Source: a virus (Duplodnaviria; Caudoviricetes). Taken from it: a stretch of DNA of 64,000 nucleotides. Positions within the stretch are counted from its first letter, which is position 1. Each line of letters opens with the position of its first letter. Both the position numbers and the translations under genes were made by a program. Of this stretch, positions 3,937 to 32,023 are shown in pieces. Under the pieces are notes generated by a model. It was not told where the DNA came from, made no database searches, and saw only the letters and a list, made by a program, of their open reading frames with translations. The stretch is from positions 8,535-72,534 of the IMG/VR virus record IMGVR_UViG_2595698399_000001. The stretch is one strand, 5' to 3'.

Positions 3937-4668
3937 TTATTTTTTTGATTTTTCAAACTCTCTTCTAAGAAGCTCGGCCATAATATAATTACTATGCGTA
4001 GGTATTCCATCCCTCCAACCTTTTGGAGAAACTCTTGTACCATCGTCCGTGGTTATGAAGAAATATTCATACCCTTTAGGAGCTCCATCTACGGCCTCTA
4101 ACTTGTTTTCCTCTCGACACCATACTTTTTCTAGCGTGAGTTTCCAACTTCTTATTTTCTTATTATTTTTATTATACCAGTCATTACTGGCGTAGTAGTC
4201 AACGAAAGTCTTTCCGTTTACTATGTAGCCTTTTTCCAATGCGTATTGTGTAGCTTCCTCAGGTGTTGGAGGTGTAAACGCTAATGGTGGCTTGAAGTCA
4301 TCTTCTGTGTAGATCTCTAATAGTTCATCCCTATATCGAGAGGCCTTCCCCTCTTCTATAGCCTTACGGATGTTAAGTTTTGATTTAGATAGCGATAAGA
4401 AATGTTCTTTTATTATAAAAACGTTAAATAAACCATCTTTGAAATGAACTAAATACCCACTCTCTTTTAATTCTTCTATACTCTCTTCTATTTCAACTTT
4501 GCCAGTAATCCCTATGTTTAAGTCTGTATTTAAAGACTCGTCTCTCAAAACCAACACTCCTAGAGTGCTTATTTGAGGTTGGGTTACTAAGTAAACATAC
4601 AAGAGTTTAGAATGGGCAGACAACGTAGAAAAATACGCATCCGCCCATAATTTACCTATTGGTACCAT
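3937..4668 (-). CDS. putative replication initiator-like protein
   Basis: N-terminal LWAD..F..LS...KLLYVYL and C-terminal FTPPT.EE...FVDYYASNDW...SWK, typical of phage replication proteins; sits in the replication block. Confidence 0.55.
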   Translation of the reverse strand: MVPIGKLWADAYFSTLSAHSKLLYVYLVTQPQISTLGVLVLRDESLNTDLNIGITGKVEIEESIEELKESGYLVHFKDGLFNVFIIKEHFLSLSKSKLNIRKAIEEGKASRYRDELLEIYTEDDFKPPLAFTPPTPEEATQYALEKGYIVNGKTFVDYYASNDWYNKNNKKIRSWKLTLEKVWCREENKLEAVDGAPKGYEYFFITTDDGTRVSPKGWRDGIPTHSNYIMAELLRREFEKSKK

Positions 4669-7598: not shown

Positions 7599-8549
7599 TT
7601 AATATTTTAATTTTGATTTTCTAATTTTTTTAAGTTTGACGTCAGACGTCTCTATGCCTTTGTGGACTACGGTGGTAGGAGTTGTTGTGCTAGGGGTTTT
7701 TATAAATGACTTATCCGAACCCTTATAAAGCCCTTCAAAAGGATTTCCCTGTACCGTCACGCCTTTATCGCCTAATAAAACACCCCATTTTCCATTGCTG
7801 TGTATGAACCCTTTCTGGTTATACGTCCAAATATCTCCCTTACTATTGGATCTTATATCTCCGTTAGACTCAACTGTAACTCCTTCCATACCACTGAAAC
7901 CTCTAACAGGTCTGTATAATACGCCTTTTCCGTATATTTTTCTGGCTTTATCTAGATTAATGTCTAAGATCAAGGCTTCTATATCTTTTTCTGGATTATC
8001 TACTATATCTGACCATACTCCATCTTTGTAGATGAACCCTTTTTGACCCCCCACCCAAATATCTCCTCTACCATTAGACTTTATAATACCGCTAGAGATA
8101 CTTGTAAACTTACTTTCAGGGCCTTTAAACGGCCTGTATACCACTCCTTTTTTGTATAATCTCTTGGCTTTTTCTAAAATTTCTTCTTTAGCGACTTTAA
8201 CTAAACCCTCAAGAGTGGTGGTAGGTTTTGATCCTTTTACTACACCTGCAATATCTTTTCCTGTCTTCTCTTTACTGATACTGTACTGACTTAGTATAGC
8301 ACTTATTACAGATAGTACGTCTGCTTTTGAATCCTTGGTGCTAGTGTATACCGAAGACCAACTTATACCGTGGTCTAAAGACTTCATCCAATTTATTTTA
8401 GAGAATATTACTGAGGACAATGGTCTATCTAGTAAATTAGACATATCTACACCTTTATTAGTGTCTTTTACACAGAACTCCAATACGCTATAAGCGATTA
8501 AACTGTTTTCTAATACATCTCTTACTTTTATATCTATCCCTTTTTTCAT
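7599..8549 (-). CDS. hypothetical protein with two internal repeats
   Basis: L[ED]KA[KR]..Y.KGV.YRP...S.G.I.SN..GDIW...QKGFI...G.W present twice. Confidence 0.7.
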   Translation of the reverse strand: MKKGIDIKVRDVLENSLIAYSVLEFCVKDTNKGVDMSNLLDRPLSSVIFSKINWMKSLDHGISWSSVYTSTKDSKADVLSVISAILSQYSISKEKTGKDIAGVVKGSKPTTTLEGLVKVAKEEILEKAKRLYKKGVVYRPFKGPESKFTSISSGIIKSNGRGDIWVGGQKGFIYKDGVWSDIVDNPEKDIEALILDINLDKARKIYGKGVLYRPVRGFSGMEGVTVESNGDIRSNSKGDIWTYNQKGFIHSNGKWGVLLGDKGVTVQGNPFEGLYKGSDKSFIKTPSTTTPTTVVHKGIETSDVKLKKIRKSKLKY

Positions 8550-18268: not shown

Positions 18269-18630
18269 TAGTGGAGGCGGAGGGAATCGAACCCTCGTCC
18301 AGAGCACTTAATCGTTAATGTTTTATACAGCTTTTGCGTAGTATCGTTACACACGGCATTTCTTTAGACTCTTTATGCTAGAGGGGCCAACCATAGTTAT
18401 GATTGAAGCTCCACCAAACTGTTTTGAGAAAACAGATAAAACGGTCAGCTTATACCCCTACTGCTACTTCAAGGTTAAGGATAGCGTTTACCGCTTCCAT
18501 ATTAGCTTCGATCTGTGCGTTTACCGCATTCGTGTTGTTTCCGTTTAAAGAATTTCACCTTAGTTTGTGCAGTTATCTCTCTGCGCTGAACATTAACGAC
18601 TGTTATACCCTGTCAAAACCAGTCGCCCCC
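18269..18630 (-). ncRNA. ssrA: tmRNA
   Basis: 5' GGGGGCGACTGGTTTTGAC; 3' GACGAGGGTTCGATTCCCTCCGCCTCCA with G3.U70 Ala determinant; about 360 nt; tag ORF after TAAAC at 18542-18450. Confidence 0.9.
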
Positions 18631-20067: not shown

Positions 20068-20142
20068 TAGTACTCTCTATAGGATTCGAACCTATGTTTT
20101 TCGGATGAAAACCGAATGTCCTTACCGCTAGACGAAAAGAGC
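20068..20142 (-). tRNA. tRNA-Glu(TTC), copy 1
   Basis: GCTCTTT acceptor, TTCGG-TTTTCAT-CCGAA anticodon arm, ATAGG-TTCGAAT-CCTAT. Confidence 0.85.
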
Positions 20143-22037: not shown

Positions 22038-22112
22038 TAGTACTCTCTATAGGATTCGAACCTATGTTTTTCGGATGAAAACCGAATGTCCTTACCGCTA
22101 GACGAAAAGAGC
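22038..22112 (-). tRNA. tRNA-Glu(TTC), copy 2 (identical to copy 1)
   Basis: Exact repeat of 20068..20142. Confidence 0.85.
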
Positions 22113-25597: not shown

Positions 25598-26028
25598 AAA
25601 ACAATAATTATTTATAGAATAGCAAGCAGCAAATAAATATCCTAATCAAATAAACTATGTTAAACAGGTATTAAACAGACTTTATTTATAGCAGATTGAC
25701 CCGTATAAAATGATGCGGAGAAAGTTAAGGAGTTTAATGTAAGTGACTGCAAACCAAGTAATTAACAGCCTAGAAAAGCTAAAAACTATACGCAAATTTG
25801 AAAAAATGCGAACCCCACCCCGTTAAAAAAATCGGGTTTGCCATAGCAGCGTGAGGCCCGTGGGTATAGTATGTCTTAAAACAGAAAATGCAAGAGAACT
25901 TCGAAAGTTGGTGCAAAAACATGCATAAAATGGCCCCTAAAGTACGTGACAAACTTTTTACCGAATTATTTACTTGCACCCCTCGAAAGATTTTACTACC
26001 TTTATATCTCATTTAAACAAGGATTATT

Positions 26029-26322
26029 ATGTCAGATAAATTACTAGGAGCGATCGAATTAAAAACTATTAGAATAGATACAGTATTCTACGATTATGAG
26101 GGTCAAGATTTAGGAGACGAAGAAGTAAGGGAAAGTATCCTCGGAGGAGACTATGGAGCAGTTAGTGTTTATGTAAACGACGTCTTAGCATCTTCTTACG
26201 GTGACTACTACCACGAGAAGGGTGATGTAGCAGCAGATGCTTTTGCAAGTGGCCTGTTATTTGCATTAAACGCCCCAGAAGACTTCGAGATACTCTATAC
26301 AAATTCAATAGAGGTGTATTAA
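26029..26322 (+). CDS. acidic hypothetical protein
   Basis: 97 aa, first right-arm ORF. Confidence 0.65.
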   Translation: MSDKLLGAIELKTIRIDTVFYDYEGQDLGDEEVRESILGGDYGAVSVYVNDVLASSYGDYYHEKGDVAADAFASGLLFALNAPEDFEILYTNSIEVY

Positions 26323-26527
26323 TAGTGGTAATTTTATAAAATATGGCACGTACATGGGAATCATTCGGGGAGTTTTGGTCTGAACTATCAAAAGATCAGA
26401 GGACGTACTTAAAAGAGTACATAAATAAGAAAACACGACAGGCCGTCGAACAATATAAAGAAAGTCTCGAATAACAGCTCGAATACTTTTACTATATTTG
26501 CACCTAACACTATAAACATTATAAACT

Positions 26528-26674
26528 ATGATTACATTTTTAGTAGGAGTATTGGCCGGAGCGGCAGGCTTCGCATTAATCTTGAAGAACAACCCTAAAT
26601 TACAAGCATATTTCAATAGTGCTGCAGACGAGTTGGAGCGAAAGATTGAAGAAAAAACCGGAAAAGACATCTAA
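26528..26674 (+). CDS. small membrane-anchored protein (48 aa)
   Basis: MITFLVGVLAGAAGFALILKNNPK...; TATATTTG promoter element upstream. Confidence 0.65.
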   Translation: MITFLVGVLAGAAGFALILKNNPKLQAYFNSAADELERKIEEKTGKDI

Positions 26675-26693
26675 AACAAAAATTATTTACAAG

Positions 26694-26729
26694 TAAGTTT
26701 TTTTATATCAAAAAAAAGTTGTATATTTG
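26694..26729 (+). promoter_or_regulatory. tRNA operon 1 promoter (repeat copy 1 of 3)
   Basis: TAAGTTTTTTTATATCAAAAAAAAGTTGTATATTTG; -7 TATATTTG. Confidence 0.75.
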
Positions 26730-26748
26730 TATCAAAGCAATAAGATCG

Positions 26749-26826
26749 ATGAAAACAATTATGAACATAGCGACAGATATTAGAACCAAGGGAGTGAAAC
26801 TCTTGGGGAGGAGCCGTGTACTATAA
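26749..26826 (+). CDS. putative attenuator leader peptide 1 (MKTIMNIATDIRTKGVKLLGRSRVL)
   Basis: 16 of the first 17 codons specify operon-1 tRNA amino acids; 3' end carries antiterminator strand. Confidence 0.8.
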   Translation: MKTIMNIATDIRTKGVKLLGRSRVL

Positions 26827-26853
26827 TTTCTTTAGATATAAGATGTTTATTAC

Positions 26854-26881
26854 AGCCCTCCCCTAAAAAGGAGGGTTTTTT
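26854..26881 (+). terminator. attenuator terminator 1
   Basis: GCCCTCC-loop-GGAGGGT-TTTTT directly before tRNA-Ala. Confidence 0.8.
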
Positions 26882-26884
26882 ATT

Positions 26885-26962
26885 GGGGCTGCATGAACCA
26901 AGGCAAGGCGACTTTGATTTGCAATCAGAGTGAGATGGGTTCGATACCCATGAGTTCCACAA
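26885..26962 (+). tRNA. tRNA-Ala(TGC)
   Basis: Loop TTTGCAA, G3.U70, ATGGG-TTCGATA-CCCAT. Confidence 0.8.
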
Positions 26963-26987
26963 TAAGATCCCTTACTGACACCAAATT

Positions 26988-27063
26988 GCCCTTGTAGCAA
27001 ACAGGTTGTAGGCAACCGTCTTTTAAACGGTGGGGCTAGGTTCGATTCCTAGCAGGGGCACAT
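26988..27063 (+). tRNA. tRNA-Lys(TTT)
   Basis: ACCGT-CTTTTAA-ACGGT. Confidence 0.85.
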
Positions 27064-27109
27064 AAGTAAATTAGCTTATATAATGGATTATAAGCGAATA
27101 AGGTAATAT

Positions 27110-27185
27110 TGGAGTATAGCTCAGCGGTTAGAGCACTCCCCTGATACGGGAGATGTCGTAGGTTCGAAACCTTCTACTCCAACGA
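27110..27185 (+). tRNA. tRNA-Ile(GAT)
   Basis: CTCCC-CTGATAC-GGGAG. Confidence 0.85.
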
Positions 27186-27270
27186 GGCGGAAGACTACCG
27201 AAAGAAGGAAAAAGGAAAAAAGTTGGACTAAGAGATTGTTTTTACCTCAACTCTATAAAAAGAGGAATTT

Positions 27271-27346
27271 GCGTAAGAGGCCATAGTGGAATGGCGCCTG
27301 CCTTCCAAGTAGGAGATAGCGAGTTCGAACCTCGTCTTACGCTCTT
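27271..27346 (+). tRNA. tRNA-Gly(TCC)
   Basis: CCTGC-CTTCCAA-GTAGG. Confidence 0.85.
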
Positions 27347-27353
27347 TTAAAAT

Positions 27354-27425
27354 TGTGGGTGGTCGTGGTGACCAGAGGGCCTCATAAGTCCTTATAGATG
27401 GGTTCGACTCCCATACCCGCCACAA
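27354..27425 (+). tRNA. tRNA-Met(CAT), short D-arm, unpaired 1:72
   Basis: AGGGC-CTCATAA-GTCCT; ATGGG-TTCGACT-CCCAT. Confidence 0.7.
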
Positions 27426-27497
27426 AAGTCGTTTCTACACTCTTCGGGATAAAGGGTGTTCGTACGACACTCGGCAGTTAATCGACATCTGCCAACT

Positions 27498-27577
27498 GGT
27501 CTAATAAGCGTGTTTGGTAACACGAATTGCACTGTCACTGCTCTAAAACGAGGGTTCGAATCCCTCTTAGACCGCTT
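27498..27577 (+). tRNA. tRNA-Asp(GTC)
   Basis: Loop CTGTCAC; GGTCTAA/TTAGACC-G; anticodon stem partly mismatched. Confidence 0.7.
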
Positions 27578-27584
27578 TAATTAT

Positions 27585-27661
27585 GCACTAATGACTGAAT
27601 AGGAAATGGTACTTCATTTGTAACGAAGATAATTCGGGTTCGACTCCTGATTAGTGCTCAA
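27585..27661 (+). tRNA. tRNA-Thr(TGT)
   Basis: CTTCA-TTTGTAA-CGAAG; GCACTAA/TTAGTGC. Confidence 0.75.
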
Positions 27662-27867
27662 CATACTTAATCCGCCTATCGAGAAGTTTTGAAGCGCATT
27701 AGATTAAGTGTTTTCTGAAAAAGGGGCTTAGCGAATACTAGATATCGTTAACAAAGGCCCCTTTTTATTTATCAGGATAAAAGTATTGTAATGGAGTTTT
27801 GAGTTATGGAAATAAGCTTCTCCACGTTAAAAACAAAAAAGTAGGTGTAGTAATATGCTTACCATAT

Positions 27868-27944
27868 ACCAGATTAGCTCAGCGGTTTAGAGCAGCTCTT
27901 TTACAAGGAGAAGGTCGATAGTTCGAATCTATCATTTGGTACGA
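27868..27944 (+). tRNA. tRNA-Val(TAC)
   Basis: GCTCT-TTTACAA-GGAGA. Confidence 0.8.
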
Positions 27945-28002
27945 CAGTACCTACCACACTTCTAGGAGAACGTCTCAAAGTGTCCAAGGGTAGGTCTTTT
28001 TT

Positions 28003-28076
28003 ACCTCTATAGTTTAAAGGAAGAATACGGCGCTTCTAACGCTATGGTCGGGGTTCGAATCCCTGTAGAGGTTCTT
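28003..28076 (+). tRNA. tRNA-Arg(TCT)
   Basis: CGGCG-CTTCTAA-CGCTA. Confidence 0.8.
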
Positions 28077-28078
28077 AT

Positions 28079-28151
28079 TGGAGTAAGCCTAGGTAGGTTA
28101 GCACGTCTTATATGCGTGTGGAGATGGGTTCGATTCCCTCTATTCCAACTA
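28079..28151 (+). tRNA. tRNA-Ile(TAT), short D-arm
   Basis: CACGT-CTTATAT-GCGTG; acceptor TGGAGTA as in tRNA-Ile(GAT). Confidence 0.7.
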
Positions 28152-28170
28152 TTTATAAAATAAAAAGATA

Positions 28171-28205
28171 TAAGTTTTTTTATATCAAAAAAAGTTGTAT
28201 ATTTA
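28171..28205 (+). promoter_or_regulatory. tRNA operon 2 promoter (repeat copy 2 of 3)
   Basis: TAAGTTTTTTTATATCAAAAAAAGTTGTATATTTA. Confidence 0.75.
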
Positions 28206-28209
28206 CAAT

Positions 28210-28299
28210 ATGAAAACAAACATGACATACAATAATTTCTCTTGGTATTCGAATTGTAGCTTTAGTAGCTATAATGTCGAGAGGTTGTACTTGTCTTAA
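28210..28299 (+). CDS. putative attenuator leader peptide 2 (MKTNMTYNNFSWYSNCSFSSYNVERLYLS)
   Basis: Codons 7-22 use only Y/N/F/S/W/C, the operon-2 amino acids. Confidence 0.8.
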   Translation: MKTNMTYNNFSWYSNCSFSSYNVERLYLS

Positions 28300-28348
28300 A
28301 AATATATTCATTTCTTTTATTAATTTTTGATTATTAATTTTGATTTTT

Positions 28349-28390
28349 ACCCTCTTGGTCTTTCATAGCTAGGAGGGTTTTTTGTTTTTT
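28349..28390 (+). terminator. attenuator terminator 2
   Basis: ACCCTCTTGGT-loop-GCTAGGAGGGT-TTTTTGTTTTTT before tRNA-Tyr. Confidence 0.8.
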
Positions 28391-28396
28391 ATAACT

Positions 28397-28481
28397 TGCA
28401 ACGTAAAGCTAGTGGTTCTAGCAGGCTGTCTGTAAAACAGTTCTTGAGAGGGGAGTGGTTCGATTCCGCACGGTGCAACAA
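28397..28481 (+). tRNA. tRNA-Tyr(GTA)
   Basis: GCTGT-CTGTAAA-ACAGT; long variable arm. Confidence 0.8.
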
Positions 28482-28485
28482 TAAT

Positions 28486-28578
28486 GGAAGAGTAAGCCAA
28501 GTAGGTCTACTGGTCGCTGTCTTGAAAACAGTTGGGGTTTAAAAGCCCGTGTGGGTTCGAGCCCCACTTCTTCCGCAT
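28486..28578 (+). tRNA. tRNA-Ser(TGA)
   Basis: GCTGT-CTTGAAA-ACAGT; long variable arm; G73. Confidence 0.85.
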
Positions 28579-28580
28579 TT

Positions 28581-28668
28581 AGAGAGGTGTCTGAGTGGCT
28601 TAAGGTACTACTTTGCTAAAGTAGTGGGGTTAACGCCTCCGAGGGTTCGAATCCCTTCTTCTCTACAA
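28581..28668 (+). tRNA. tRNA-Ser(GCT)
   Basis: CTACT-TTGCTAA-AGTAG; long variable arm. Confidence 0.85.
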
Positions 28669-28674
28669 ACACAC

Positions 28675-28749
28675 GGCTAGGTAGCTCAGAGGAAGAGCAG
28701 GCGCCTGTTAAGCGTCAGGTCGAGATATCGTAATTCTCCCTAGCCTCTT
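28675..28749 (+). tRNA. tRNA-Asn(GTT)
   Basis: GGCGC-CTGTTAA-GCGTC; atypical T-loop. Confidence 0.8.
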
Positions 28750-28753
28750 TAAT

Positions 28754-28828
28754 ATGTCTCAGCATAAGGTATGCAGTCGGTCTCCAAAACCGTACATGGA
28801 CAAGGTTCGATTCCTTGGGGGCGTGCAA
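28754..28828 (+). tRNA. tRNA-Trp(CCA), short D-arm
   Basis: CGGT-CTCCAAA-ACCG; CAAGG-TTCGATT-CCTTG; G73. Confidence 0.75.
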
Positions 28829-28905
28829 TAAAACAACAGAGCATCCTATAATGTAAAGGAGCCGCCATAAAATCCGAGAGAAGGTCTTGGCTGTTGTTTT
28901 TTAAT

Positions 28906-28981
28906 GCGTTAGAAGCTAACTTGGTAGAAGCACTGGCTTGAAATCCCAGAGGAGTAGGTTCGATTCCTACCTATCGCACTT
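28906..28981 (+). tRNA. tRNA-Phe(GAA)
   Basis: CTGGC-TTGAAAT-CCCAG. Confidence 0.8.
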
Positions 28982-28984
28982 ATA

Positions 28985-29057
28985 TCGGAGATCCTGACGG
29001 AGAAGGGGCCTGTCTGCAAAACTGCGCTATACCGGTTCAATTCCGGTCTCCGATTCT
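28985..29057 (+). tRNA. tRNA-Cys(GCA), divergent anticodon stem
   Basis: Loop CTGCAAA; TCGGAGA/TCTCCGA acceptor with U73. Confidence 0.65.
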
Positions 29058-29106
29058 TATGTTTGTATTTTTCGTACCTTTACTACTTAACGTTAAACAA
29101 ACAACA

Positions 29107-29400
29107 ATGAGAAGAACTACAAGAAAAACTGTGCCAACTAATAAAACTGCGCCTAAGAAAAACGTAACAATCAAATCTGATAAGAGTAGTGTTGCAAGTA
29201 CCAAGGCTAAAAAATACACTGTTAAGACAAGTGGCAAGCTTAAGAAAGAAGAAGAAGCTAGAGGAACTAGGGGTCGTAATGACGCCAATAGATCTGCAGC
29301 CTTTAAGAAAGATGTAGAGAAGGCCGGAGGTATGAGTGCATATACTAAGAAATTAACTGATGCAAAGAAGAGGGTCAAGAAGAATCCAACAAGAATCTAA
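29107..29400 (+). CDS. highly basic small protein
   Basis: MRRTTRKTVPTNK...; K/R-rich; preceded by TACCTTTA -7-like element. Confidence 0.7.
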   Translation: MRRTTRKTVPTNKTAPKKNVTIKSDKSSVASTKAKKYTVKTSGKLKKEEEARGTRGRNDANRSAAFKKDVEKAGGMSAYTKKLTDAKKRVKKNPTRI

Positions 29401-29412
29401 TATAAAACAGTA

Positions 29413-29448
29413 TAAGTTTTTTTATATCAAAAAAAAGTTGTATATTTA
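29413..29448 (+). promoter_or_regulatory. tRNA operon 3 promoter (repeat copy 3 of 3)
   Basis: TAAGTTTTTTTATATCAAAAAAAAGTTGTATATTTA. Confidence 0.75.
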
Positions 29449-29452
29449 CAAT

Positions 29453-29542
29453 ATGAACGTAACGCTATTACATCAAGAGCCCTTAGAACAACTTCGATTA
29501 CCATCGAGGGTGCCTTATTATGGGATTGATGAACTATCATAG
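29453..29542 (+). CDS. putative attenuator leader peptide 3 (MNVTLLHQEPLEQLRLPSRVPYYGIDELS)
   Basis: Codons 5-17 use only L/H/Q/E/P/R(CGA), the operon-3 amino acids. Confidence 0.8.
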   Translation: MNVTLLHQEPLEQLRLPSRVPYYGIDELS

Positions 29543-29565
29543 TTTACAACGCACAATATCCTATT

Positions 29566-29602
29566 AAGAGCCCCTTTGGTATAAACCATTGGGGCTTTTT
29601 TT
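29566..29602 (+). terminator. attenuator terminator 3
   Basis: AAGAGCCCC-TTTGGTATAAACCATT-GGGGCTTTTTTT before tRNA-Pro. Confidence 0.8.
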
Positions 29603-29606
29603 ATTT

Positions 29607-29681
29607 CGAGTAGTGACAAAATTGGCACGTGCCGACCTTGGACGTCGGAGAATGCAGGTTCGATCCCTGCCTACTCGACTT
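29607..29681 (+). tRNA. tRNA-Pro(TGG)
   Basis: CCGAC-CTTGGAC-GTCGG. Confidence 0.85.
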
Positions 29682-29687
29682 TGATTT

Positions 29688-29765
29688 GCTATCGTCTTCT
29701 AAATGGAATAGGAATCCACCCTTTCAAGGTGTGCAATGCGAGTTCAAGTCTCGTCGATAGTACGA
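29688..29765 (+). tRNA. tRNA-Glu(TTC)
   Basis: CACC-CTTTCAA-GGTG. Confidence 0.8.
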
Positions 29766-29808
29766 AGGTTGTTTGCTAGTATCTCCCAACAAAGTAGAAA
29801 CTAGACAT

Positions 29809-29883
29809 TGGAGTATGATGTAACGGTTAGCATGACTGGTTTTGAGCCAGTTCGTCGGGGTTCGAATCCCTGTACTCCATCTT
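29809..29883 (+). tRNA. tRNA-Gln(TTG)
   Basis: ACTGG-TTTTGAG-CCAGT. Confidence 0.85.
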
Positions 29884-29891
29884 ATAAGAGT

Positions 29892-29968
29892 CCTCCGTTG
29901 CGCCAAATTGGAAAGGCGGTCAAGCTGTGAACTTGATTACATGGGTTCGATTCCCATACGGTTGTCCA
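29892..29968 (+). tRNA. tRNA-His(GTG), mismatched acceptor stem
   Basis: TCAAG-CTGTGAA-CTTGA; good D and T arms; acceptor CCTCCGT/ACGGTTG has two mismatches. Confidence 0.65.
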
Positions 29969-30004
29969 ACACGGGGTAGTGTCATAATGTCATACCCCTT
30001 TTAT

Positions 30005-30090
30005 GCCGGAGTGAGTAAAAAAGAGAATGGCAGATCATTGGGTCTTAGAAACCCAGACTTTTGGGGGTTCGAATCCCTCCTCCGGTACTT
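30005..30090 (+). tRNA. tRNA-Leu(TAG)
   Basis: TGGGT-CTTAGAA-ACCCA. Confidence 0.75.
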
Positions 30091-30096
30091 ATTAAT

Positions 30097-30182
30097 GCAT
30101 CCATGGTGGAAAGGGCTATACACTACAGGCTTAAAACCTGTCGCCGAAAGGATTGGGGGTTCGAATCCCTCTGGATGCACTT
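30097..30182 (+). tRNA. tRNA-Leu(TAA)
   Basis: ACAGG-CTTAAAA-CCTGT; long variable arm. Confidence 0.85.
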
Positions 30183-30186
30183 TCAC

Positions 30187-30261
30187 ACTTCTATAGCTTA
30201 ACGGAAAAGCGTTCCGCTACGAACGGATAGATTGGGGGTTCGAATCCCTCTAGAAGTTCTT
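30187..30261 (+). tRNA. tRNA-Arg(ACG)
   Basis: TCCG-CTACGAA-CGGA. Confidence 0.85.
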
Positions 30262-30265
30262 AAAC

Positions 30266-30298
30266 AAAAAAAGCCATCTAATTAAAGGTGGCTTTCTT
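30266..30298. terminator. terminator closing the tRNA array (possibly bidirectional)
   Basis: AAAAAAAGCCATCT-AATTAA-AGGTGGCTTTCTT. Confidence 0.7.
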
Positions 30299-31049
30299 AT
30301 TTTCAACTGGTGGTTGGTGCTAGGCTAATTTGGATTTGCCCCTAATTTTAAAAGATAGGGCATCCTTCACCTTGCTATTTTTTCGTTTATAAACTCGAGC
30401 AGTCGAATCTTCTTTCTTAGAATCCAACTTACTATTCTTCTTACTTTCTATTTTATGGTCTTTATATCTCATATCTTATCTCGGGGCTAGGTTATCTATA
30501 TTCTATTATATCTATATTTATTATCTAATAATATACTTTAGGTAATCCTCTCTGGATATAGCTTCGCTAAAGAGTAAAACCCGTTAGAGTGATACAATTT
30601 AGACGAAAACATATAACTTAATTTGGTTTAGAAGCTTGCGCTCTTTAGTATAAACCTCCTGTTATAATGGGAGCCATAAATGGCGGAGGAATTGCCTCTC
30701 TTACTCCAAACACTCCTCAGTGTTCCTTCGCTCGAATAACTATCTTAGCACGCCTATCCTTGGCCAGAACGATATGTAGCCCGACTAACTACTTCCCTAT
30801 TCGCTAGGTTCTTTATCTTCGGTACTTAGTTTGAGTAAGTCAAACCCTTAGAAACTCTTCGTATGTAATATGTTGTAAATATAGTAAAAATAAAGCGTGT
30901 ATGCAAATATACAAATAATTATTTTATACTTTTTTACCCCCCCCAAATAATTTAATTATGTAAAACGCTAATAGTCAACAACTTATAAAATAAATTAAAA
31001 ATAATTGAAAATAAATTAGGTTTAACAGACTTTATGTACTATCTTTGTA

Positions 31050-31309: not shown

Positions 31310-32023
31310 ATGGATAATAAGAAATACGTAGCATACTACAGGGCGTCGACAGAAAGCCAAAGAGATGGAATAGGTCTAGAAGTTCAAAAGAGTTCGGTAG
31401 AGGCGTTTGTTAAGTCTTACGGCGGAACTATAGTAGAAGAGGTTAGCGAGATAATCTCGGGTGGGGCCCAAGTTCGAGAAGGATTTGATAAGGCATTAGA
31501 ACTTTGTAAGAAACACTCTGCGGTATTACTGGTTCACCGCATAGATAGATTATCTAGAGCAGGGTTTATGACCATAGCAAAGCTAGAGGAGAAGGGTGTT
31601 CCTTTTATAGAAGCTGATTCACCTCACGATAGCGAGTTCTCTAAAAACATCAAGTTCTTAATTGCTAAAGAAGAAAAAGATAAAACTCAGAGAAGGGTAA
31701 AAGACGCCTTAGGCCAGATAAAGGCCAATATAGAATCTGACGGATACCATATTACTAAAGCCGGTGATCGAATCACTTCTTTAGGCAACCCTCAGAATCT
31801 CTCTGATATGGCCAGAGAGCGCTCTAAAGTAATTAGAAAGGCAAAGGCCATTGCTAACGAGAACAACCGTAGAGCGTACGCTATGGCATCTAGAATGAAG
31901 TCTAACAAGAGTACTTTAAAGCAGATAGCAGATTACCTTAATAAAAACGGATTTGAAACATCTAAAGGAAATAAATTTTACCCAATACAAGTAAGCAACT
32001 TAATCAAATTATATGAAAACTAA
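31310..32023 (+). CDS. serine recombinase/resolvase
   Basis: YVAYYRASTESQ (catalytic Ser), LLVHRIDRLSR, C-terminal LKQIADYLNKNGF.T.KG. Confidence 0.9.
   Translation: MDNKKYVAYYRASTESQRDGIGLEVQKSSVEAFVKSYGGTIVEEVSEIISGGAQVREGFDKALELCKKHSAVLLVHRIDRLSRAGFMTIAKLEEKGVPFIEADSPHDSEFSKNIKFLIAKEEKDKTQRRVKDALGQIKANIESDGYHITKAGDRITSLGNPQNLSDMARERSKVIRKAKAIANENNRRAYAMASRMKSNKSTLKQIADYLNKNGFETSKGNKFYPIQVSNLIKLYEN

Follow-up and report, generated by a model that had tools for sequence, protein, structure and literature searches.

Leader-peptide attenuators control the amino-acid operons trp, his, leu and pheA, with multivalent forms at thr and ilvGMEDA, and at pheST of Escherichia coli attenuation acts through the pheM leader. 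The control of transfer RNA (tRNA) genes is thought to lie mainly at their promoters. Here we describe a tRNA array in a 64,000-nt stretch of viral DNA (positions 8,535 to 72,534 of IMG/VR record IMGVR_UViG_2595698399_000001; this whole stretch is hereafter called the window), in which three blocks of tRNA genes each follow a short leader open reading frame (ORF) made up largely of codons that the tRNAs of that block read. The window belongs to a marine Cellulophaga phage near Calle_1 (Pervagoviridae, Callevirus), which it matches over 26600-30400, at 95.5% over blocks 2 and 3. As judged from the sequence and from folding models, each of the three tRNA operons is probably controlled by a ribosome-mediated transcription attenuator of the trp/his type. 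The principle is that of the trp/his/ilv-type attenuator; new are the tRNA genes as targets and a leader that carries a list of many codons.

The locus shares with the amino-acid attenuators a short ORF with regulatory codons, a terminator placed before the first gene and, in our models, mutually exclusive 1:2, 2:3 and 3:4 pairings and an antiterminator that is set free when a ribosome halts at those codons; sensing of several amino acids is likewise known from the ilv and thr leaders. Unlike those attenuators, the leaders described here are phage-borne and precede tRNA genes rather than biosynthetic or synthetase genes, they hold a list of 4-10 codon classes, usually with 1-4 codons each, in place of a run for a single amino acid, and several of them probably start at the 5' end of the transcript. 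Their lists match the tRNA set down to the split boxes (Ser TCN/AGY, Leu CTN/TTR, Arg AGR/CGN, Ile ATY/ATA). The pheST operon with pheM is similar in that leader-peptide attenuation acts on a translation gene whose product serves the sensed tRNA, but there a synthetase is controlled rather than a tRNA operon, one amino acid is sensed, and no phage is involved. T-box riboswitches (Rfam family RF00230) likewise sense the state of a tRNA through a terminator/antiterminator switch, in their case on genes of the aminoacylation pathway, but their RNA binds the tRNA directly without a ribosome, through one specifier codon and a conserved T-box sequence. Rfam returned no match at E <= 1 to the His, Thr, Trp, Leu and Phe leader families or to the T-box in 26000-31000, nor to the T-box or another leader family at gathering score across the window.

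Cys-rich leaderless short ORFs of mycobacteria act as Cys-responsive attenuators (bioRxiv 10.1101/834739), and cleavage of tRNA-Cys by VapC4 leads to ribosome stalling at Cys codons (PMC13096801). As far as the accessible portions of these sources go, the mycobacterial case, in which a tRNA-cleaving toxin brings about the stalling, resembles the present one in its short, often leaderless ORFs with codons that report on one tRNA or amino acid, and differs in sensing one amino acid, in controlling cellular operons rather than tRNA itself, in having no multi-tRNA list and in lying outside phages. Phage tRNA arrays have been read as a counter to tRNA-targeting host defences (eLife 2023, PMC10264068), a study that, in its available text, treats the same kind of cargo and gives a rationale for tRNA supply in infection; the terms attenuat*, promoter, terminator and leader are absent from its main text as accessible. 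The Calle paper, in the portion available, only counts 20 tRNAs and one transfer-messenger RNA (tmRNA) (PMC8776804), and the available portions of that paper, of PMC10264068 and of the phi38:1 transcriptome paper (PMC5335546) contain no mention of such a mechanism. A first-pass annotation of the window, which had proposed codon-sensing attenuators here, knew of no earlier description for phage tRNA arrays; this fits our search of the full-text literature, most subscription journals excepted, which found no description of leader-peptide attenuation of tRNA genes in cells or phages.

Codon-matched leaders ahead of three tRNA blocks

The promoter-like repeats, leader ORFs and tRNA blocks of the array are as follows.

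26694..26729, + strand: promoter-like repeat 1, with TATATTTG at its end, 19 nt upstream of the leader ATG
26749..26826, + strand: leader ORF 1, 25 codons, MKTIMNIATDIRTKGVKLLGRSRVL
26886..28149, + strand: block 1, 10 tRNAs (Ala-TGC, Lys-TTT, Ile-GAT, Gly-TCC, Met-CAT, Asp-GTC, Thr-TGT, Val-TAC, Arg-TCT, Ile-TAT)
28171..28205, + strand: promoter-like repeat 2, with its box TATATTTA ending 4 nt before the ATG
28210..28299, + strand: leader ORF 2, 29 codons, MKTNMTYNNFSWYSNCSFSSYNVERLYLS
28397..29056, + strand: block 2, 7 tRNAs (Tyr-GTA, Ser-TGA, Ser-GCT, Asn-GTT, Trp-CCA, Phe-GAA, Cys-GCA)
29413..29448, + strand: promoter-like repeat 3, with its box ending 4 nt before the ATG
29453..29542, + strand: leader ORF 3, 29 codons, MNVTLLHQEPLEQLRLPSRVPYYGIDELS
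29607..30259, + strand: block 3, 7 tRNAs (Pro-TGG, Glu-TTC, Gln-TTG, His-GTG, Leu-TAG, Leu-TAA, Arg-ACG)

The 61 sense codons were split into 24 anticodon classes and leader codons 2-18 were scored against background fractions drawn from window ORFs no shorter than 150 aa (15134 codons). Own-block codons occupy 15 of these 17 positions in leader 1 and 13 of 17 in both leader 2 and leader 3, at backgrounds of 0.53, 0.24 and 0.23, respectively (binomial P 2.6e-3, 8.1e-6 and 4.0e-6). The longest unbroken own-block runs measure 11, 16 and 13 codons, and simple arithmetic from the background fractions gives a 16-codon run at 0.24 a probability of ~1e-10. The sensor run of leader 1 (codons 2-17, 26752-26799) contains K, T, I(ATT), M, I(ATA), A, D, R(AGA), G and V together with one foreign AAC, that of leader 2 covers codons 7-22 (28228-28275; YNNFSWYSNCSFSSYN) and that of leader 3 codons 5-17 (29465-29503; LLHQEPLEQLRLP). 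An accidental control is provided by the +1 frames of leaders 1 and 3, which are closed by several stops. The observation of codon-matched leaders on three tRNA operons is confirmed.

These results agree in large part with the first-pass annotation. The 25-29 codon ORF that it placed after each promoter is present in all three cases, and each of the 24 tRNAs has, as claimed, a cognate codon in its own leader, split boxes included (10/10, 7/7 and 7/7; also 24/24 under standard, strict wobble, with the codon lists read by hand). Its statement that the leader codons mirror their own block stands for the counts given above, with the reservation that leader 1 holds a foreign codon and that leaders 2 and 3 open in codons of block 1. 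The 24-tRNA array in three blocks was recovered as 10, 7 and 7 genes, two of them read by hand and only 17 above the Rfam threshold. With default settings ARAGORN reports 18 tRNAs in the array, and under relaxed ones also Ile-TAT, Tyr, Trp and Cys; the anticodon loops served to assign Ala-TGC (26886-26960) and Leu-TAG (30005-30088), both of which have called homologues in Maribacter phage Panino and in the related loci L127 and L130 (L-numbers are our handles for loci). Together the 24 genes cover all 20 amino acids.

A shared promoter of ~35 bp ahead of each block had also been proposed, and three 35-nt copies were indeed found (starting at 26694, 28171 and 29413), with ungapped identities of 100%, 74% and 100% and the middle copy one A shorter. 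The 15-nt core of this repeat matches three times in the window when up to two mismatches are allowed (0.75 expected); it occurs exactly thrice and nowhere else. The sequence TATATTTG fits the -7 box of Bacteroidota, with consensus TAnnTTTG. In many leaders the start codon lies 4 nt past a TAnnTTTG-like box, which suggests leaderless mRNAs, and the leader 2 mRNA may be one of them.

The codon lists could in principle act as RNA, without ribosomes, if tRNA anticodons paired with the leader as with an array of T-box-like specifiers and thereby stabilised the antiterminator; as codons of the downstream tRNAs, the listed triplets necessarily match their anticodons by base pairing. The triplets nevertheless all lie in one frame, which runs from an ATG or GTG to a stop at a conserved distance from the terminator, and the other frames are closed by stops. 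Up to 16 of them are adjacent, with no space for tRNA-sized ligands, and no T-box or leader family was matched within the scopes given above. We consider such direct tRNA binding highly improbable, and return to the translated leader of a ribosome-mediated attenuator.

Predicted alternative pairing of leader and terminator

Each leader ORF carries in its distal part a strand complementary to the 5' arm of the terminator that follows it, in 3/3 cases as the first-pass annotation had described.

26805..26814, + strand: antiterminator strand 1, GGGGAGGAGC, codons 19-22; pairs the terminator 5' arm at 26855-26863
26855..26884, + strand: intrinsic terminator 1, hairpin 26855-26876 and T-run, folding energy (dG) -11.2
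~28234-28243: competing segment 1 for antiterminator strand 2
28277..28288, + strand: antiterminator strand 2, codons 23-26; pairs the terminator arm at 28349-28359
28349..28391, + strand: intrinsic terminator 2, hairpin 28349-28378 and T-runs, dG -14.6
29492-29509: local 1:2 hairpin of leader 3
29499..29514, + strand: antiterminator strand 3, codons 16-21; pairs the terminator arm at 29568-29580
29568..29604, + strand: intrinsic terminator 3, hairpin 29568-29597 (with an internal loop) and T-run, dG -15.9

Two of the three leader terminators were also flagged by a simple terminator scan. The codon-matched run had been said to end within about 5 nt of the antiterminator strand, and it does so 5 nt before the strand in leader 1, 1 nt before it in leader 2 and overlapping it in leader 3. 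A spacing of 3-6 nt between terminator and first tRNA, as originally described, was not borne out: the first tRNA begins 10-19 nt from the start of the T-run, and in block 2 up to ~12 nt past the first T-run.

The full-length minimum-energy folds of all three leaders combine a 1:2 pairing, of a sensor-run segment with the start of the distal strand, and the 3:4 terminator. Parking a ribosome on full-length transcripts produced no switch in leaders 2 and 3, and stall folds were therefore computed on transcripts ending before the 3' arm of the terminator, with 29 nt around the A site held unpaired. In these truncated folds a ribosome at codons 1-16 (leader 1), 2-16 (leader 2) or 1-14 (leader 3) lets the 5' arm pair with the distal-ORF strand, and the pairing is lost further on. 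The strand at 26807-26814 of leader 1 pairs with a probability of 1.00 for stalls at codons 1-15, that at 28277-28288 of leader 2 with 0.79-0.91 for stalls at codons 2-16, and that at 29500-29514 of leader 3 with ~0.90 as long as the stall lies within codons 1-12, a value that drops to 0.33 by codon 16; once the ribosome has moved further downstream the 2:3 probability is ~0.1-0.6 in leaders 1 and 3 and 0.22-0.35 in leader 2. In each leader the switch is predicted just where the own-block run ends (codon 17 in leader 1, 22 in leader 2 and 17 in leader 3). When no ribosome is placed on the truncated transcripts, 2:3 wins in leaders 1 and 3, and 1:2 wins only in leader 2. The full leader 1 also switches at equilibrium, the terminator having a probability of at most 0.28 for ribosomes at codons 1-15 and of 0.99 at codons 16-26. 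Folding with and without ribosome masking, as the first-pass annotation had suggested, thus yielded a switch in the truncated folds of all three leaders and in leader 1 at equilibrium, and none at equilibrium in leaders 2 and 3.

The attenuator that we propose would operate as follows. A dedicated promoter would start the transcript at, or just ahead of, the 25-29 codon leader ORF, whose proximal part would serve as a list of the codons read by the downstream tRNAs; the distal strand (segment 2) would be able to pair with the 5' arm (segment 3) of the terminator (3:4) that lies just ahead of the first tRNA. With all listed tRNAs available and charged, the ribosome would cover segment 2 on its way to the stop codon, the terminator would form and the operon would be off. 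Were any listed tRNA short, a ribosome stalled in the list would cover segment 1, 2:3 would pair, and with no terminator formed transcription would read through into the tRNA genes. Because the products of the operon are the sensed tRNAs, the loop would be self-limiting and its supply made on demand. Candidate causes of tRNA depletion would be host shut-off, the codon demand of late infection and tRNA-cleaving defences; the first-pass annotation had pointed to host anticodon nucleases. We infer leader translation, from the conserved frame, start and stop, as well as stalling and regulated read-through.

The region is represented in four SOLiD RNA-seq runs of two studies, in the form of assembled contigs, which cannot show transcript ends or levels. 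In these, leader 1 continues into block 1, and leader 2 through block 2 and a 97-aa ORF beyond it; the contigs bridge the terminators of leaders 1 and 2 into the tRNAs, so that either read-through forms exist or DNA was carried over. Leader 3 contigs at 29428-29526 and 29428-29531 have a depth of ~2400 vs ~280 in block 3, none of the contigs listed bridges 29532-29593, and several break near 27736-27794; being contig depths and contig gaps, these figures allow no conclusion.

Leaders of the same layout in other phages

Related loci were collected from GenBank phages, from pattern scans of IMG/VR and from a metagenome scan with a phage tRNA-Pro pattern; that pattern gave 0 matches in 185,579 bacterial and archaeal genomes. 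The 15-nt core of the promoter-like repeat was rejected as an IMG/VR search probe for being unspecific: among 115 loci examined only L037 had at least two tRNAs, and it has no leader ORF. The leader set includes the window, Panino, the Cellulophaga phages phi4:1 and phi10:1, and contigs from IMG/VR and metagenomes. Near-duplicates were dropped (Calle, as the window; phi17:2, as phi4:1; L118 and L126, as L119; L123 and L131, as L130; L132, as L124; L144, judged by size, as L134), and L138, L140, L141, L142, L146 and L147, which are near L129, were left out of the counts. There remain 22 non-redundant leaders, all with the layout described above, from uncultured contigs and from at least four unrelated groups of cultured flavobacterial phages, the cultured carriers being Calle (Pervagoviridae), phi4:1 (Lightbulbvirus, 146 kb), phi10:1 (Assiduviridae, 54 kb) and Panino (unclassified, 77 kb). 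For L119, no GenBank relative was found.

Every unit (22/22) contains one plausible ORF, which starts with ATG or GTG and stops 51-97 nt upstream of the first tRNA, and every leader (22/22) has a hairpin (dG -8.2 to -17.3) with a T-run starting 4-22 nt ahead of the first tRNA; the stop codons lie 18-50 nt upstream of the terminator arm. At positions 2-18, own-block codons number from 5/17 to 15/17, at block backgrounds of 0.07-0.53, and 17 of the 22 leaders represent every tRNA of their block. Tallied over 21 leaders and 24 classes, a codon of the class is present at positions 2-18 in 137/143 in-block cases vs 95/361 out-of-block cases (odds ratio 64, Fisher p 3e-51). L127_3, whose block is cut by the contig end, was dropped from this tally, and an element at 3446-3565 of L119 that was hand-read as Ser-GCT, without ARAGORN or Rfam support, was scored as in-block, which affects one codon.

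Several of these loci depart from the window in detail. Panino and L120 have a type-1 leader without a promoter of its own, which starts 5-6 nt after the stop of a small membrane-protein ORF (L002 5269-5499; L120 2730-2950), unlike the window, where the promoter repeat lies between the membrane-protein ORF and leader 1. Both also carry an odd tRNA-like gene with a TCT (Arg) anticodon loop and a long extra arm (L002 7146-7227; L120 ~4230-4310), not called Arg-TCT by ARAGORN or GenBank; the leaders upstream have two AGA codons. In the Pro-Gln-His-Arg(-Leu) unit of L135 (112-201), and likewise in L139, L143 and L145, the promoter is kept ahead of a shorter, ORF-less leader with hairpins of its own, which may be a different kind of leader. 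In the GenBank record of phi4:1, the coding sequence Phi4113_076 is laid over a tRNA-Ser(TGA) found by ARAGORN and Phi4113_075 starts inside the promoter (L122 6649-6750 and 4521-4640), the latter indicating that leader ORFs of this phage are mis-annotated or missed; the Calle_1 annotation marks 0/3 leaders. The L119 array is in two parts with a gene for the tRNA-splicing/repair ligase RtcB between them (1372-2601; Pfam E 1.2e-59), and an IS200/605-like fragment lies at the start of that locus.

Where a tRNA has moved, been gained or been lost, the leader codons have mostly changed too (Glu, Asn, Trp, Tyr, Ser, Leu). Glu codons (1-2 at positions 2-18) are present in the leaders of 4/4 Pro-first blocks with a Glu-tRNA (window, Panino, phi4:1, L130) and in 0/5 of those without (L119, L124, L125, L129, L134). 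Tyr and Ser-TGA have been gained by the Pro block of L119, whose leader is alone in having Y and TCN codons within its run. The Tyr-first block of L124 includes Leu-TAA, and Asn has moved out of it; its leader, FSFCLSYWLSF, holds TTA twice and has no N within the run. The Tyr-first block of L125 contains Leu-TAG and Leu-TAA and no Trp, and its leader LYSFYCLLSS uses CTA, CTT and TTA and has no W. In phi10:1 the block consists only of Tyr, Trp, Phe, Ser-TGA and Cys, and the leader run is WSYSCFSYSF. N codons at positions 2-18 number one where the block is without an Asn tRNA and 2-4 where it has one. For the classes that vary within a type, 2x2 counts are (25, 0, 6, 11) for type 2 (p 2.9e-6) and (18, 0, 9, 27) for type 3 (p 9.7e-8). 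Permutation of leader codons against block tRNA sets, one of the checks that the first-pass annotation had called for, gave at most 221 own codons when blocks were permuted within type and a mean of 99 when they were permuted across all leaders, vs 222 observed (0/5000 in each case). The leaders share descent, so the permutation and Fisher values overstate their independence.

The possibility that the match reflects chance, composition or shared ancestry, with the hairpins as plain insulators or processing signals, has to be set against these data. Leaders of the same type are homologous and their counts non-independent, type-1 leaders do not co-vary with their blocks, and some tRNA losses have gone untracked by the leader, all of which would favour such an origin. 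Against it stand own-block runs of 16 and 13 codons at backgrounds of 0.24 and 0.23, the outcome of both permutations, several independent rearrangements that the leader has tracked, and an antiterminator that co-varies with the terminator arm; we give this explanation almost no weight.

To follow the antiterminator across lineages, each of the 22 leaders was folded between the terminator loop and a point 41 nt past the start codon, where the 3' edge of a ribosome parked at codon 10 would lie. As read by eye, all minimum-energy folds (22/22) show a distal-ORF strand of 6-14 nt, located 0-5 codons past the sensor run, in a helix with the terminator 5' arm. The arms vary widely, and the ORF strand varies with them: CCCUCCCC in window leader 1, GAUCCUGU in phi4:1, CCUAUUCC in L124, GCCUUAG in L119 and CCAUCC in L129. 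Fold z-scores range from -1.1 to -5.7, and in 18/22 leaders at most 3 of 200 shuffles fold as well (9, 10, 13 and 28 in the others); two ordinary gene-end terminators of the window, the only two available as controls, gave z -1.0 (27/200) and +1.0 (178/200). In an RNAalifold alignment of ten type-3 leaders, the antiterminator helix has 8 pairs, 5 of them with compensatory changes, and 81.3% of cells are paired vs 65.4% in shuffles (0/500; slid controls 41-56%), with a covariation score of 0.564 vs 0.290 in shuffles (0/500). The type-1 alignment conserves the helix, with no compensatory change and with phi4:1 out of register. A type-2 alignment was discarded as too poor for a consensus.

A number of findings count against the attenuator. 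Full-length leaders 2 and 3 retain the terminator at equilibrium at every ribosome position (P 0.86-0.99), so that regulation would have to be kinetic, with 2:3 forming before segment 4 is made, and in leader 3 the modelled antiterminator re-forms with the ribosome at the stop codon (P 0.86-0.90, codons 28-30). The first codons of leaders 2 and 3 belong to block 1 (M, K, T, V), and stalls there could give cross-talk between operons. Seven of the 24 window tRNAs are non-canonical and fall below the Rfam threshold that the other 17 pass. Type-1 leaders show no significant co-variation (17, 1, 7, 0; p 1.0). The L120 block is without Lys, Asp, Thr and Val tRNAs and its leader retains their codons; the L119 leader has six Leu codons at positions 2-18 and its block no Leu tRNA; two CTN codons are retained in L125_3, one F codon in L125_2 and one AGT codon in phi10:1; and the L134 leader has no Arg codon. 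In the untracked cases other than L134, the tRNA is gone and the codon stays. Finally, L135, L139, L143 and L145 have promoter, hairpin and T-run and no leader ORF. The covariation of leader codons with tRNA content that the first-pass annotation had expected in related phages therefore holds for types 2 and 3, is not significant for type 1, and fails for several untracked losses.

Some of these points would also suit leaders that are translated and codon-matched but read out in another way, through Rho access, RNA processing or precursor stability, or with the sign reversed, smooth translation leading to read-through. The terminators of leaders 2 and 3 form at equilibrium wherever the ribosome sits, RNA-library contigs bridge the terminators of leaders 1 and 2, and the ORF-less variants retain a terminator. 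In pyrBI-type control a terminating ribosome melts the terminator directly. Here the stop codons, 18-50 nt ahead of the arm, are placed such that a terminating ribosome could not do so, and in 22/22 leaders the sensor codons are followed at once by a strand that can pair with the leader's own terminator arm and co-varies with it. We judge a different read-out unlikely and favour the ribosome-mediated transcription attenuator, given that every testable sequence-level prediction of the proposed trp/his-type layout held (the alternative pairings in the folding models, the layout in 22/22 leaders, and co-variation of codons and antiterminator).

The array in its phage and tRNA supply during infection

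The tRNA array is bounded by a conserved 48-aa membrane-protein ORF (26528-26674) and by a terminator, and a further ORF interrupts it between block 2 and promoter 3.

29107..29400, + strand: basic 97-aa ORF between block 2 and promoter 3
30270..30295, + strand: array-end terminator, from the terminator scan

The 97-aa ORF shares its RNA contigs with block 2; it belongs to no Pfam family, and its Calle_1 counterpart is annotated as a structural protein. A search of related loci gave no relative for the 48-aa membrane protein that adjoins leader 1. Among nine ORFs around the array, Pfam identified one serine recombinase (31310-32023, beyond the array) and one weakly PRTase-like protein, and nothing tRNA-related.

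The blocks are nearly sorted by the first base of the codon, A or G in 10/10 of block 1, T in 5/7 of block 2 and C in 5/7 of block 3, and phi4:1, Panino and L127 have the same block order and grouping. Further hairpin and T-run elements lie within blocks 1 and 2, at 27720-27775 (Thr/Val), 27950-28002 (Val/Arg) and 28833-28900 (Trp/Phe), and could represent terminators internal to the blocks, processing sites or remnants; the gap between Thr and Val measures 208 nt in the window and 108 nt in L127. Two tRNA-Glu(TTC) genes lie outside the array on the opposite strand (20071-20142 and 22041-22112, -), 1970 nt apart and with 63.7 Rfam bits each; they come in addition to the Glu-TTC of block 3, which is less canonical (43 bits).

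The window also encodes a tmRNA (18269-18630, - strand; Rfam 87.6 bits) with the tag peptide AQIEANMEAVNAILNLEVAVGV according to ARAGORN, and Panino has an annotated tmRNA within its tRNA array (L002 6640-6972). A phage tmRNA could matter for ribosomes stalled on hungry codons. Like the RtcB gene of L119, the tmRNA of the window fits a setting of tRNA damage and stalled ribosomes, and neither proves anything.

A wider reading, which we put forward tentatively and hold to be possible rather than probable, is that flavobacterial phages carry a portable, self-metering tRNA supply, a complete tRNA set being divided among operons that are each gated by a list of exactly the tRNAs it precedes. The loss of any tRNA species, for instance to a tRNA-cleaving host defence, would switch on the operon that replaces it; the cassette would move between unrelated phage families, its list being rewritten as the tRNAs shuffle, and the list could be used to read the decoding identity of odd tRNAs.

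If the attenuator operates as proposed, it would form a closed feedback loop in which the ribosome gauges up to ten tRNA species at once and orders more of them. From the leader one could predict which of the non-canonical tRNAs are supposed to function and which codons they read, and the leaders would offer synthetic biology natural, compact and multiplexed sensors of tRNA availability. The prediction is testable in culturable phage-host pairs (Cellulophaga, Maribacter). For the phages themselves, tRNA arrays would be an inducible, metered supply rather than constitutive cargo, and their leaders would provide a direct means of studying how phages and tRNA-cleaving defences contend with each other.

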